Of a stretch of DNA of 64,000 bases, positions 9,489 through 12,099 are shown in pieces. The DNA lies in assembly GCA_045632345.1 (NCBI GenBank), contig JAZQWM010000009.1, positions 1,730 to 65,729 of the forward strand, given 5' to 3'. Source of the DNA: Eubacteriales bacterium. Lineage in GTDB: Bacteria; Bacillota; Clostridia; Oscillospirales; CAG-272. Below the pieces are notes generated by a model that was not told where the DNA came from, made no database searches, and saw nothing but the letters and a program-made list of their open reading frames with translations. Position 1 is the stretch's first letter; the number at the start of each line of letters is the position of its first letter. A program made the position numbers and the translations under genes.

Positions 9489-9998
9489 TCACAGGGATGT
9501 GTGGATATATCCCATTTTTTCAAGGTATGGTAGATAGCGAACGCGTTGGGCTTCAATCATTTCATTTGAATTTACGAATTTAATAAATTCCTGTTCGTTT
9601 AGCCATTTAAAAGATACAGTTTCGCCTTCTTGTAAAAGGACTTTCGTTTTATCGCAATCAGTAATTGCTAGGAAGTTATGATAAATTGTATTGTGAGACA
9701 CAAAAATAGATATTTCTTCTAAGGATAATGCGGTAATTCCTGTTTCTTCAAGTAATTCTCTTTTTGCACAGGTTAATGGCTCTTCTCCCTTTAGTGCAGA
9801 GCCGCTTGCGGTAGCTTCAAACATGCCGCCATAGTTTGGTTTACGTGGATCTCTTTGCATAAGTAGGTAGTCGCCGTCTTTGTGTCTTACGATAATTTCG
9901 CAAACTAGGTGGTAAAGCCCCTTGGGAATTTCCTTGCCACGAATAAGGTCAACGCCTGCTTTTGTGCCGTCCGATAAATATGCGTCCCAAATTTCCAT
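9489..9998 (-). CDS. NUDIX hydrolase
   Basis: 169 aa. Nudix box GSALKGEEPLTCAKRELLEETGI. Confidence 0.88.
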   Translation of the reverse strand: MEIWDAYLSDGTKAGVDLIRGKEIPKGLYHLVCEIIVRHKDGDYLLMQRDPRKPNYGGMFEATASGSALKGEEPLTCAKRELLEETGITALSLEEISIFVSHNTIYHNFLAITDCDKTKVLLQEGETVSFKWLNEQEFIKFVNSNEMIEAQRVRYLPYLEKMGYIHTSL

Positions 9999-10067: not shown

Positions 10068-10099
10068 ATAAAAAGCTCTGCAAAATGCAGAGCTTTTTG
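10068..10099 (-). terminator. Terminator (bidirectional) downstream of the methyltransferase 3' region
   Basis: gctctgca-aaa-tgcagagc flanked by A-runs and T-runs. Confidence 0.75.
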
Positions 10100-10113
10100 A
10101 ATATAGATAAGAA

Positions 10114-10127
10114 ATTATCTCTTTGAG
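10114..10127. repeat. Copy A of the rpsI 3'-end word (ATTATCTCTTTGAG; minus strand reads tca aag aga taa)
   Basis: 12-15-nt identity with 11128-11144 (inverted) and 11200-11214 (direct). Confidence 0.85.
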
Positions 10128-10145
10128 TTTTGAGAGTACCGTTTG

Positions 10146-10204
10146 ATATCGTGAATATCGTTAAATATCGTGTGATTTCGTGCGATGTCGTGAATGTCGT
10201 GAGC
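10146..10204. repeat. Six tandem AT(A/G)TCGTG units spaced 9-10 bp apart (iteron-like)
   Basis: TCG cores at 10149, 10158, 10168, 10178, 10188 and 10197. A degenerate seventh lies at 10206. Confidence 0.85.
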
Positions 10205-10222
10205 ATCGCATGATAAAGTGTT

Positions 10223-10250
10223 GCACCAAATTTGCACCAAAATCGCACCA
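10223..10250. repeat. Three GCACCA(AA) units spaced 11 bp apart
   Basis: GCACCA at 10223, 10234 and 10245. Confidence 0.85.
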
Positions 10251-10289
10251 CATTAAACGCCCATTCAGCTCGACAAATTGGAATTTGTT

Positions 10290-10886
10290 TTATTGTTTTC
10301 TGCTTACAATAATGTATGCGTTATCAGTTTCAATTACATTTACAACTGACATTGCGACATCACCGATAATCGATGTTATATTATCGAGAGTATCGGGATA
10401 GATCTTTACTTTACGATTTCCCATATCAATATATTCGCTTTGGTTCTTGTCTATGGACAAGCAAAAGATACCGTCATCATTTAACAATTTATAAACCTTG
10501 GTAATGACAGTTGCCTTATTCTTGAAGTGCATCATAGTAAGGGATGAATATATAACATCGAATGTTCTGGTAAATTGATAATAACTGAAATCATCACATA
10601 TAAAAGAAATGTTCTTGTACTCTTTTAAGTTTTCTTTTGCTCGTTCAATGGTTTTTGGAGAAATATCTATACCTGTGAGGGTCATGCAAAATGGTGCAAC
10701 CTTAACAGCGATTCTTCCTGTGCCAATACCGATCTCAAGAACTTTTTTATTCTTGGTAAGCTCCAATGCTTCTATAAATCGTTCGCCATCCCACTGGGAC
10801 ATATATTCTTGCAACATAGGAGGGTCACGAAAAGGGTCGTTATCTTCATCTATCAATAAATCGTAATGGTCGATTACATTCATCAT
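10290..10886 (-). CDS. Class I SAM-dependent methyltransferase
   Basis: The ORF runs to 10904 (TTG); ATG 10886 is the likelier start. Motif I is VLEIGIGTGRIA and post-I is LTGIDISP. Substrate unknown. Confidence 0.82.
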   Translation of the reverse strand: MMNVIDHYDLLIDEDNDPFRDPPMLQEYMSQWDGERFIEALELTKNKKVLEIGIGTGRIAVKVAPFCMTLTGIDISPKTIERAKENLKEYKNISFICDDFSYYQFTRTFDVIYSSLTMMHFKNKATVITKVYKLLNDDGIFCLSIDKNQSEYIDMGNRKVKIYPDTLDNITSIIGDVAMSVVNVIETDNAYIIVSRKQ

Positions 10887-10933
10887 ATATACCTTCAAAT
10901 TCAAGTTTATCGAGTAGATAACTACCCAAAGTA

Positions 10934-10962
10934 ATTATACCATAAAGCATCTAAAATGTAAA
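10934..10962 (-). promoter_or_regulatory. Promoter of the methyltransferase gene
   Basis: Gene-sense TTTACA-17-TATAAT (TGg upstream). Confidence 0.5.
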
Positions 10963-10980
10963 TAGGACGGCTCAAAATGT

Positions 10981-11127
10981 TATGAATTGAAGCCTTACGG
11001 CTTCATGATTTGAAATCTTTGATTTCATGAATTGAATTGCCCTATCATATCAATGCCGTAGGCAATTCACGAGCCGAAGGTTCAATTCATGGCGCAAGCC
11101 AATTAATGCCCGATAGGGCGATTCATT
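10981..11127. repeat. Cluster of short hairpins and ATGAATTGAA / TTCAATTCAT words
   Basis: ATGAATTGAA at 10982 and 11027, inverted at 11081. Hairpins: gaagcc-ttac-ggcttc, tgaaatc-tttg-gatttca, gaattgcc...ggcaattc, ggc-gcaa-gcc, gccc-gata-gggc. Confidence 0.8.
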
Positions 11128-11144
11128 GTTCTCAAAGAGATAAT
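11128..11144. repeat. Copy B (inverted) of the rpsI 3'-end word (GTTCTCAAAGAGATAAT)
   Basis: Positions 11128-11142 are the perfect reverse complement of 11200-11214 (15 bp); positions 11131-11144 reverse-complement-match copy A over 14 nt. Confidence 0.85.
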
Positions 11145-11176
11145 AAAAAAATGCCCCGAAAAAATCGGAGCATTTT
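11145..11176 (-). terminator. Terminator after rpsI
   Basis: Minus-strand aatgctccga-ttttt-tcggggcatt followed by TTTTTTT. Confidence 0.8.
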
Positions 11177-11198
11177 TTGTATCGACCAAAGGTCGAGA

Positions 11199-11600
11199 CT
11201 ATCTCTTTGAGAACTGTGGTGCGCGACGAGCAGCCTTGAGACCGTACTTCTTTCTTTCCTTCATACGTGGGTCACGTGTGAGGAGACCAGCAGCCTTAAG
11301 AGCGCCTCTTGTTGTTTCGTCAGCTGTGAGTAATGCTCTTGCAATACCGTGACGAATAGCACCTGCTTGACCTGAGATACCGCCGCCTACAACGTTAGCA
11401 ACAACATCGAATTTGCCCATGTTGTTTGTTACGTCGAATGGTTGGTTCATGATAAGCTTTAATGTTTCGAGACCGAAGTAGTCGTCAACGTCTCTTCCGT
11501 TGATAGTGATTGAACCAGTACCTGGATAAAGACGAACGCGAGCTACTGATTTCTTTCTTCTACCTGTTCCGTAGAAATATGGTTTAGCACTTGTATACAT
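11199..11600 (-). CDS. rpsI: 30S ribosomal protein S9
   Basis: 133 aa. [19 protein letters not shown]; C-terminal ...RRAPQFSKR. Confidence 0.97.
11200..11214. repeat. Copy C: the actual rpsI 3' end (…cag ttc tca aag aga tag)
   Basis: TATCTCTTTGAGAAC on the plus strand. Confidence 0.9.
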
Positions 11601-11620: not shown

Positions 11621-12049
11621 TTATTTTACTTCGTAGTTGATTGGTTGTTGAGCAGCTTGATTGTGGTTAGCACCAGCATAAACCTTAAGTCTTGTGAAAG
11701 ACTTAGCTCCGATTGTGTTGTGTGGGAGCATACCCTTAACTGCAAGCTCCATAGCAAGCTCTGGACGTGTAGCCATAAGAGTCTTGTATTGAACTTCCTT
11801 AAGACCACCGATGTAACCTGAGTGACGACGGTAGTACTTTTGCTCAAGCTTCTTACCTGTTAAGATAGCCTTTGATGCGTTTACGATGATTACGAATTCG
11901 CCACAGTCAGCGTGTGGTGTGAATTCTGGACGGTGCTTACCTCTTAAAATGTTAGCAGCAGCAACAGCTGTCTTACCAAGTGGCTTGTTAGCAGCGTCGA
12001 TAACATACCATTTACGTTCAATGGTGTTGTTAGCCATAAATGTTGACAT
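11621..12049 (-). CDS. rplM: 50S ribosomal protein L13
   Basis: The ORF extends to 12097. I moved the start to ATG 12049 (ggaggaaaacaaaATG). [13 protein letters not shown]. Confidence 0.95.
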
Positions 12050-12099
12050 TTTGTTTTCCTCCATTAAATTGAGTTGTTCTCTTTTTTTATTGCTCACAT

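Follow-up and report, generated by a model that had tools for sequence, protein, structure and literature searches.

The 64,000-nucleotide stretch of contig JAZQWM010000009.1 from a Eubacteriales bacterium (hereafter the window) carries on its minus strand the genes rplM (11621-12097) and rpsI (11199-11600), a methyltransferase gene (10290-10886), and a NUDIX hydrolase gene (9489-9998). Between the methyltransferase stop codon (10290-10292, minus strand) and a terminator composed of a hairpin and T-run (10070-10098), where the original prediction from the sequence had placed them, lie two adjacent arrays of short direct repeats, termed DR1 and DR2. That prediction had likened the arrays to iterons, to arm-type binding sites of recombination proteins, or to a site for a multimeric RNA-binding protein. 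Our analysis suggests that both arrays are probably the protein-binding arm of the attachment (att) site of a small integrated mobile element, and neither a replication origin nor an RNA element. The features on which this reading draws are as follows.

10221-10254, minus strand: DR1 array, three 11-bp units reading GTGGTGCGATT TTGGTGCAAAT TTGGTGCAACA on the minus strand; proposed integrase arm-type sites
10146-10212, minus strand: DR2 array, six (T)CACGAYAT units (ATRTCGTG on the plus strand) at 9-10 bp, plus a degenerate seventh at 10205-10212
10111-10127, minus strand: putative att core copy A (attR side), CTCAAAGAGATAATTTC; native rpsI 3′ end running on into the native terminator, recognized by comparison with empty sites
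11195-11211, minus strand: putative att core copy C (attL side), overlapping the rpsI stop codon; 15 of 17 positions identical to copy A
10128-11194, minus strand: insertion body between the core copies, missing in same-genus relatives with empty sites
10070-10098, no strand assigned: native rpsI terminator, a hairpin whose perfect stem of 13 bp is flanked on each side by T/A runs, and which now ends the methyltransferase transcript

Repeat arrays and the insertion that carries them

Tandem Repeats Finder placed DR2 at 10146-10202 (period 10, 6.0 copies, 78% matches, consensus ATATCGTGA) and DR1 at 10221-10254 (period 11, 3.1 copies, 82% matches, consensus TTGCACCAAAT). A second repeat search of the window sequence returned the same two arrays, and direct reading agreed with the six ATRTCGTG-type units at 9-10 bp and three units at 11 bp first described. 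The DR2 units start at 10146, 10155, 10165, 10175, 10185, and 10194 (spacings of 9, 10, 10, 10, and 9); four are exact ATRTCGTG, two are variants (ATATCGTT and ATTTCGTG), and the degenerate seventh, ATCGCATG, starts at 10205. DR1 consists of TTGCACCA at 10221 and 10232 and TCGCACCA at 10243, which follow the pattern (T/C)GCACCA; the DR1-type repeat motif can also be given as TTGGTGCAA. In the direction of rpsI, the right arm of the element was found to comprise the last cassette site (described below), 11 nt, DR1, 8 nt, DR2, 18 nt, the core, and the native rpsI terminator. Both arrays are thereby situated 18-143 bp from the crossover core (DR1 at 95-143 bp and DR2 at 18-101 bp from copy A), in keeping with the 18 bp first noted between the array and the copy of the rpsI end at 10111-10127.

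The arrays were compared with chance expectation. Exact ATRTCGTG occurs eight times in the window, with four of these occurrences confined to the 57 bp of DR2, and exact GCACCAAA occurs six times, with two in the array region; motif matching detected no comparable array elsewhere in the 64 kb, as the original prediction had stated. The fixed-lag self-identity of DR1 was reached by none of 2,000 dinucleotide shuffles, which is decisive, and that of DR2 by nine of 2,000, a result that is only moderate because the spacing of DR2 varies. Conservation is a stronger argument than the shuffles: L213, L214, and L220 (L numbers denote the loci compared) each have the two arrays, unit for unit, at the orthologous position.

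Syntenic relatives were gathered through homologues of the NUDIX protein and through contigs encoding exactly the rpsI protein of the window. In three empty sites of the same genus (L083, L084, and L221), rpsI is directly followed by ...CTCAAAGAGATAATTTCTTATCTATATTCAAAAAGCTCTGCA... (the terminator), and the NUDIX gene begins 120-124 nt after rpsI. The native post-rpsI sequence of the window starts at copy A and continues through the hairpin at 10070-10098. Since copy A joins native downstream sequence, this comparison identifies 10128-11211 as an insertion of ~1.08 kb at the 3′ end of rpsI, flanked by direct repeats of 17 bp, and the terminator of the methyltransferase gene as the original terminator of rpsI. 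The flanking repeat, CTCAAAGAGATAATTTC, is a perfect 17-bp direct repeat in L214, and in the window the left copy has two substitutions. A 12-mer taken from the last rpsI codons on the opposite strand, TATCTCTTTGAG, has only three copies in the window: C (11200-11211), A (10116-10127), and B (11131-11142, inverted). The methyltransferase gene is the only protein-coding gene in the 1.08-kb body. The terminator was found by an inverted-repeat search and is not listed by a simple terminator scan; neither the insertion nor the native rpsI origin of this terminator had been recognized in the original prediction.

Comparison of the relatives revealed a conserved arm and an exchanged interior. L214 and L220 carry another gene (204 aa) in place of the methyltransferase, and another motif (GTTATGA instead of ATGAATTG) in the hairpin-rich array of the element, while the corresponding gene of L213 encodes 247 aa. 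All three share the right arm, which comprises the cassette 3′ site, three DR1 units, a 15-nt spacer, DR2, CAAACRGT...AAAA, and the core. DR1 was present as three units at 11 nt in every rpsI-targeted element compared (the window, L213, L214, and L220). The number of DR2 units was found to vary: 2(+1) were counted in L220, 6(+1) in the window, and 8(+1) in L214, and L213 has about 8 units and an interruption; all DR2 units across the loci retain a CACGA core. As L220 equals L214 without internal units, this variation bears the signature of unequal crossing-over or slippage. A 30-nt DR1 block, TTTTGGTGCAAATTTGGTGCAACACTTTAT, is identical in the four loci (0/30 mismatches), compared with 20/45 mismatches in L214 and 8/45 in L213 for the adjoining spacers (Fisher p = 6e-6 and 0.019, respectively); host housekeeping genes are 81-96% identical among these loci (4-19% difference). 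DR1 is thus significantly more conserved than its diverged flanks and appears to be under selective constraint. Furthermore, in L205, a more distant relative recovered by scanning metagenomes for the left-arm hairpin, DR1 is kept with few changes and the interior is rebuilt. Neither DR1 nor DR2 was present in ~55 other cassette loci at tRNA genes or other sites. Judged from these comparisons, the arm is tied to the target (rpsI) and not to the cargo.

Loss of the arrays alone from otherwise syntenic relatives, which had been named as evidence against a function, was not encountered: relatives without the arrays were without the whole element, and relatives with the same element and other cargo retained both arrays. 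In L213 the right arm and core directly abut the left arm of a second element, which carries a dCMP deaminase cassette; this arm-core-arm, attP-like arrangement would be expected from site-specific tandem accretion. Such accretion and the presence/absence polymorphism among hosts with identical rpsI protein are the only, and indirect, signs of mobilization.

DR1-type repeats beside integrase genes

The repeat units had been proposed as queries against related genomes and plasmids. This search was fruitful for DR1, whose motif was found beside integrase genes elsewhere; DR2 was detected only in the rpsI-targeted elements. No rep gene was found in the element and no integrase in the element or the 64-kb window; matching sites were found beside integrases of phages and of a plasmid. 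BLAST of the arrays against plasmids returned two records: (i) Kingella potus p1Npotu, in which a site-specific integrase gene is preceded at 7 nt by paired TTGCACCA at 11 bp, with such pairing repeated ~190 bp farther upstream; and (ii) a 2.5-kb Pasteurella plasmid with TTGCACCA-type 11-bp repeats. The exact DR1 21-mer matched a single IMG/VR phage contig, and the match was within attP. In this attP, three TGGTGCAA spaced at 11 bp precede a tRNA 3′ fragment and its terminator, after which come a further three copies of TGGTGCAA (two direct, one inverted) and the ATG of a 323-aa tyrosine integrase, which is 37% identical to the Kingella integrase. The survey was extended to the proteobacterial phage integrase family to which these belong, based on the 43 loci with enough upstream sequence among relatives of the IMG/VR and Kingella integrases. 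At least two TGGTGCAA-like sites were present within 500 nt upstream of the integrase gene (int) in 25 of these 43 loci, where chance would give ~0.4 per locus, and the sites were usually in tandem at 10-12 bp. In the IMG/VR members of the family (L224-L303) and in L212 (2316-2522), tandem TGG(T/A)GCAA at 10-12 bp flanks tRNA-derived cores upstream of int; the L224-L303 integrases are of ~320 aa with the N-terminus MAT..R.G...AQ.R..G. To our knowledge, the link of TGG(T/A)GCAA to this integrase family has no prior description.

A second lineage was represented by the prophage L197/L321 (IMGVR_UViG_3300027858_000035; 35% GC); the named homologues closest to its integrase belong to Bacillales genera. 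Here the int stop codon is followed by 2 nt, then TTGGTGCAAAA, TTGGTGCAAAAA, and TTGGTGCAAAA at 11-12 bp, ~90 nt, a tRNA 3′ fragment, and a terminator. In the order of its parts, this int junction is collinear with the right arm of the window, and DR1 is oriented in the direction of its target gene as are the repeats of L197. Nearly all members of this integrase family (Phage_integrase, SAM_3, and Int_M domains) with downstream sequence have two or three tandem ~11-bp repeats just past the int stop codon; the motif varies from one member to another (TTGATGCAAAA, TTGTTGACGAA, TGGGGACGAA, CGTCCCCAAT, and others). The integrase of L023 has three 11-bp repeats after the gene, ~100 nt before a tRNA-end core, and L039-type integrases have AAGGGCAAAAAC AAGGGAAAATAC after the stop codon, along with an inverted copy, ~85 nt before the core. 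Among the Firmicutes prophage integrases examined (L321-L387), the repeats begin a few to tens of nucleotides after the stop codon, and an inverted copy is often added. The spacer of L197 has two ACGAT(A/T) motifs on the same strand, which is suggestive of DR2 units but weak.

Additional scans contributed little. Blastn of the arrays against phages returned nothing useful, the right-end junction TTCACGATATCAAACRGT was not found in viral contigs, and a degenerate three-unit scan of viral contigs (GGTGCRA...) returned mostly period-12 coding repeats. A second three-unit scan of these contigs was filtered by spacing. In one IMG/VR contig (L181, 420-482), four CACTCTAACTT units and then three TGCACCAACTT units form adjacent 11-bp arrays ~320 nt upstream of a small helix-turn-helix open reading frame (ORF). 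That ORF matched only generic helix-turn-helix domains in Pfam and is followed by a 627-aa ORF; no integrase was found nearby, and the contig was set aside.

Remaining anatomy of the element and its cassettes

Read from rpsI, the order of the element is copy C, the TCGACCTTTGGTCGA hairpin, a terminator, copy B, the hairpin array, a strong promoter, the 5′ site, the methyltransferase gene, the 3′ site, DR1, DR2, and copy A. The features other than the arrays and cores are listed below; elements of this build are referred to as platforms.

11146-11196, minus strand: left-arm module, a terminator hairpin (11146-11178) and a small hairpin, TCGACCTTTGGTCGA (11182-11196); conserved in L082, L205, L206, L213, and L214
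11128-11144, plus strand: copy B, the intact target in inverted orientation, GTTCTCAAAGAGATAAT; can pair with copy C
10965-11127, minus strand: hairpin-rich array, an 8-10-nt motif ATGAATTG alternating with small variable hairpins, then the inverted motif CAATTCAT with hairpins
10934-10962, minus strand: platform promoter, TTTACA, 17-bp spacer, TG-extended TATAAT; 11 of 12 consensus positions; conserved in L205, L213, L214, and L023
10892-10914, minus strand: cassette 5′ boundary site, CTCGATAAACTTGAATTTGAAGG; contains the ribosome-binding site and is related to the 3′ site in inverted orientation
10290-10886, minus strand: methyltransferase cassette gene, S-adenosylmethionine-dependent (class I), 198 aa, ATG at 10886, ribosome-binding site GAAGG
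10266-10290, minus strand: cassette 3′ boundary site, AAACAAATTCCAATTTGTCGAGCTG; identity ends right after it in dozens of other loci

The methyltransferase start was assigned to the ATG at 10886 and not to the TTG at 10904 of the mechanical ORF, based on the GAAGG ribosome-binding site and on homologues. Exact-protein look-ups of the methyltransferase (with both starts) and of the NUDIX protein returned no record. Homologues of the methyltransferase that are 51-98% identical were found in over 50 species known from metagenome assemblies, with ruminant guts as the main source and human guts as another, often at contig ends or on short mis-binned contigs. Identity ends exactly at AAACAAATTCCAATTTGT|CGAGC downstream and at CGATAAAYWWGAATTTGAC(GGAGG) upstream. 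The consensus of the cassette 3′ site (AAACAAATTCCAATTTGTCGAGC) and that of the 5′ site (CGATAAAYWWGAATTTGAC) are ~24-bp inverted relatives of each other (L001-L058), and where cassettes are adjacent the 3′ and 5′ sites stand back to back as a ~47-bp imperfect palindrome. By these sharp boundaries, the methyltransferase gene is a mobile cassette. In four loci (L039 4745-6079, L028 9-803, L033, and L054) a 444-aa tyrosine integrase (Phage_integrase and SAM_3 domains) is located ~140 nt from a cassette site, in either cassette orientation; the presence of integrase-bearing elements precisely at cassette sites implies that these sites act as attachment cores for such elements. Tblastn of the methyltransferase and blastn of the cassette junctions against plasmids gave nothing useful, this cassette system was not found in the plasmid and phage collections, and our literature search found no description of the cassette-site sequence or of an integron-like system in Clostridia. 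A Xer/dif-like 11-6-11 reading of the core and cassette sites was considered, and neither showed an evident similarity to the Firmicutes dif consensus.

Platforms at tRNA genes were also found to be flanked by direct repeats, as exemplified by 23 bp of the tRNA 3′ end in L010 (3683-3705 and 4831-4853) and by 69 bp of tRNA end and terminator in L025 (3670-3738 and 4667-4735). Between the last cassette site and the terminator, L010, L015, L016, L020, L022, and L058 have two ~31-nt tandem units (ACACACCTTTTTACTGYTCTT...), L056 has one such unit, and L006 and L017 have three short repeats (TGTACGCA and GTGGTCAAA). These repeats may be the counterparts of DR1 for other specificities.

The hairpin-rich array is likewise present in L004, L010, L015, L016, L022, L205, L206, and L214, where the motif alternates with hairpins three or four times. 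Its motif varies by locus (ATGAATTG, GTTATGA, GATGATATAC, GTGAAATGCGC, AATGATGT, and others) with retention of direct/inverted complementarity, and many of the hairpins have UUCG or GNRA-type loops. Fold z-scores of the array were -4.3 and -5.5 in the window and -3.3 to -7.0 over eight loci, on both strands. Copy B (11128-11144) can pair with the att core (11195-11214) around the small hairpin and terminator, which results in a forked hairpin; L206 has the matching variant on both pairing sides (CTCCAAGAG / CTCTTGGAG), and L205 has a G-G mismatch. Because copy B begins in the T-tract of the terminator, it more likely has a role at the level of DNA, as a folded att mimic of the kind known from CTX phage or attC, than a role in RNA.

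The rpsI-NUDIX gap of hosts with identical rpsI protein was found to be a hotspot with at least five states (L081-L084, L207-L210, and L213-L222), including (i) an empty site; (ii) the methyltransferase platform; (iii) the 204-aa platform; (iv) the 247-aa and dCMP deaminase platforms in tandem; (v) a promoter with a 166-aa membrane-protein cassette; and (vi) the decayed composite L082. In many contigs the break falls on the core or a cassette site, and in L209 an inserted gene lies between two copies of the rpsI terminator. A second promoter and 5′-type site (CTAATCAATAAACTTAAATTTGTCGAGG) precede the NUDIX gene or the 166-aa cassette in L213 (6000-6068), L214 (5090-5154), and L081 (900-970), which implies that the native NUDIX gene can occupy a cassette position.

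Interpretation, alternatives, and comparison with known systems

For DR1, the recombination-arm reading is supported with good comparative evidence. On this reading, the DR1 units would be clustered arm-type sites bound by the N-terminal domain of a heterobivalent tyrosine integrase, which would bridge arm and core such that the recombination complex is assembled. Consistent with this role, DR1 lies within the 150-200 bp of the core expected of arm sites, is linked to integration specificity, and has a motif and spacing that recur beside integrase genes. This part of the original prediction therefore stands for DR1, by its arm position, its target-linked conservation, and its motif, spacing, copy number, orientation, and distance, whereas for DR2 it is plausible and unproven. 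The candidate recombinase for DR1 is a tyrosine integrase of the arm-binding type. As the element has no integrase, DR1 would either be used in trans by an integrase encoded elsewhere (making the element cis-mobilizable) or be a conserved remnant of an arrangement in which the int gene was replaced by the cassette. The right arm was found to be unstructured on both strands in three loci (z from -1.8 to +1.1), as expected of duplex protein-binding sites.

More tentatively, DR2 may be a tract for an accessory protein that oligomerizes head to tail, such as a directionality factor of the Xis/Cox/Apl type or a host factor, and that bends the DNA, with the number of units being altered by unequal crossing-over or slippage. 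Like the arrays of directionality factors, DR2 lies between the arm sites and the core and consists of at least three units arranged head to tail, about one turn apart. However, its architecture is not fixed (~2-9 units), and no small winged-helix gene is present in the element. A protein-binding accessory role of DR2 and a neutral expanding repeat appear about equally likely.

Several findings weigh against the arm reading of the two arrays. No integrase or excisionase was found in the element or in the 64-kb window by tblastn and motif search. An attP of the lambda type has arm sites on both arms, yet copies of DR1 or DR2 were not found on the left arm beyond background (at most two mismatches). 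Among close relatives the variation of DR2 from ~2 to 9 units shifts the distance of DR1 to the core from ~55 to ~115 bp, a shift that a precisely assembled recombination complex would not easily allow and that a neutral repeat explains equally well. In L205, DR1 is followed by another cassette instead of DR2 and the core. Finally, the match of DR1 to the proteobacterial and Bacillales sites is one of a short motif and not of long-sequence homology, and no array resembling DR2 accompanies the motif in the phage attP regions.

A broader model, which we offer as a tentative proposal and consider doubtful in its entirety, is that the arrays are the working arm of an undescribed class of ~1-kb, recombinase-less landing-pad elements. 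These would reside at the 3′ ends of rpsI and tRNA genes of uncultured gut Clostridia, display exchangeable, promoterless single-gene cassettes, and depend for both integration and cassette exchange entirely on recombinases supplied in trans. Each element would bring its own terminator, an inverted target mimic that folds with the att core into the forked hairpin, the hairpin array, and a promoter. The cassettes would be bounded by the ~24-bp inverted sites, which would themselves be attachment sites for integrase-bearing elements. Within such an element DR1 would recruit the integrase, and DR2 would be a length-variable accessory tract that tunes excision.

The best surviving alternative, although we judge it rather unlikely, is that both arrays are left over from a former integrase-bearing element and bind nothing, with DR2 being a 9-10-bp minisatellite that changes by slippage or unequal crossing-over. 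This explanation would account for the lack of a recombinase in the element and window, for a left arm without matching sites, and for the range of DR2 in four close loci (2(+1), 6(+1), ~8, and 8(+1) units), in which neighboring units are the most alike and L220 is L214 minus internal units. It does not readily account for the conservation of the DR1 block relative to its flanks and its retention in distant L205 despite the rebuilt interior, for the CACGA core in all DR2 units across loci, or for the presence of the arm in every variant of the rpsI platform, including the accretion junction.

It is improbable, in our estimation, that the repeats are instead accessory sites for a recombinase that swaps cassettes, comparable with the direct repeats of the integron attI that serve IntI. 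In each of the five loci DR1 and the cassette 3′ site are 11 nt apart, and in L205 DR1 lies between two cassettes; two or three direct repeats are located just past the last 3′ site in other platforms (L006, L017, and the L010 type); and L039-type integrases are inserted exactly at cassette sites. Nevertheless, DR1 and DR2 are limited to rpsI-targeted platforms although the cassette sites are common to all platforms, and the int-arm-core junction of L197, with which the arm is collinear, indicates that the arm has the rpsI core as its partner. Membership of the integrons themselves was considered and rejected, as the window has no integrase and the cassette sites follow their own consensus, AAACAAATTCCAATTTGTCGAGC, and not the R″/L″/L′/R′ of attC.

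A function of the arrays in RNA, in which CACGAYAU and UGGUGCAA repeats would be bound by a multimeric RNA-binding protein or would affect stability or termination, is very improbable. The arrays are transcribed in a ~190-nt 3′ untranslated region, as originally proposed, since no terminator was found from the methyltransferase stop codon to 10098; on its sense strand DR2 is richer in C than in G and lacks structure, and the repeat geometry would permit such a site. However, no structure was found to be conserved: the fold z-scores were -2.2 and -1.8 in the window compared with -0.5 to +1.1 in L213 and L214, and the single DR1:DR2 stem predicted is not conserved in L214. Rfam gave no match at gathering score (and only chance-level matches at E below 5), no motif of an RNA-binding protein was recognized, and the DR1 motif recurs beside integrase genes in attP contexts that are not transcribed.

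Least credible of all are iterons, a centromere-like site (bound by Rep or ParR), or the operator array of a response regulator: direct repeats phased by one turn typify the parC sites of ParR, the 3 × 11-bp site of pMV158 RepB, and OmpR/PhoB-type operators, and the 2.5-kb Pasteurella plasmid shares the TTGCACCA-type repeats, but the arrays are chromosomal, between rpsI and the NUDIX gene, with no replicon context and no rep or par gene in the element, their units (9-11 bp) are below the 17-22 bp usual for iterons, and the native NUDIX promoter region lacks the insertion that carries them, with no convincing promoter in or beside them. Two further candidates were rejected. A promoter within DR1 (TTGGTG ... 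TATCAT) would have a poor -35 element, a 19-nt spacer, and a -10 element not conserved in L213 or L214. A transposon end (Tn7-like or Mu-like) is contradicted by repeats at one end only, by a 17-bp repeat that copies the target gene end, and by the lack of a transposase; a search for terminal inverted repeats of the element detected only a weak ACC(N)TTTG similarity.

Taken alone, the arrays would be an ordinary object, namely protein-docking repeats in the arm of an att site, and this reading answers the earlier question while leaving the iteron and RNA proposals unsupported. As a marker they are more informative, since they show that the methyltransferase gene downstream of rpsI appears to sit in a tiny, integrase-less element with conserved ends and a swapped interior. 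Should the arms still work in trans, the platforms would constitute a compact system of gene display and gene exchange in Firmicutes, where classical integrons are rare. Furthermore, the link of TGGTGCAA to integrase arms in two lineages (by a family survey in proteobacteria and at one Bacillales-type prophage locus) may aid in delimiting the ends of prophages and islands, for which the ~11-bp repeats past the int stop codon of L321-L387 offer a convenient marker.

Among known systems, plasmid iterons, the 3 × 11-bp site of pMV158 RepB, and the parC site of ParR share with the window the use of phased short direct repeats and differ from its chromosomal setting without rep or par. The attI/attC system of integrons resembles the element in its promoter platform, promoterless single-gene cassettes, imperfect inverted sites, and direct repeats by the cassette junction; unlike an integron, the window has no IntI-type integrase, its sites are not attC, its repeats are promoter-distal, and the platform is itself an insertion with att repeats. 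Closer parallels exist in phages. The arrays of the window are, like the arm-type sites of heterobivalent tyrosine integrases such as P′1-P′3 and P1/P2 of lambda, tandem short direct repeats at about one turn within ~150 bp of a crossover core, here on the arm of an element at a gene 3′ end; the lambda sites P′1-3 number three copies, as do the DR1 units. In the L197 prophage three TTGGTGCAAAA at 11-12 bp are followed by ~90 nt, the 3′ fragment of the target gene, and a terminator, with the repeats in the same direction as the target; this matches the window, with the differences that the int gene precedes the repeats by 2 nt where the window has the cassette site and methyltransferase gene, that a tRNA gene is the target in place of rpsI, and that a DR2-type array is lacking. 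The Xis sites in lambda attR lie between the arm sites and the core, which is the position of DR2. The arrays of Xis (X1-X1.5-X2), P2 Cox, 186 Apl, RdfS, and BldC resemble DR2 in having head-to-tail units at about one turn; DR2 departs from them in its spacing (9-10 bp versus 10-11), in its copy number of ~2-9, and in having no such gene nearby. Winged-helix directionality factors and BldC are known to oligomerize head to tail with one DNA turn per subunit (PMC11963761). The attP sites of integrative and conjugative elements carry multiple arm-type sites, of which that of ICEMlSymR7A has five (PMC11963761). In contrast to those att sites, the element of the window has no integrase in cis and has the sites on one arm only.

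The rpsI 3′ end is an established target of tyrosine integrases in integrative mobilizable elements of streptococci, in which tandem accretion and decayed elements have been described (PMC5357655). A cis-mobilizable element (CIME) is one in which attL and attR are kept and the integrase is lost (PMC5704250). The streptococcal elements and that of the window share the rpsI 3′ end, direct repeats, integrase loss with attL and attR kept, and tandem accretion (L213). With its 17-bp direct repeats and no genes for integration or transfer, the element of the window would fit the CIME definition. It differs from the streptococcal CIMEs in its size of only ~1 kb and in a stereotyped build that recurs at many tRNA genes and in many species, and this recurrent build looks organized rather than randomly decayed.

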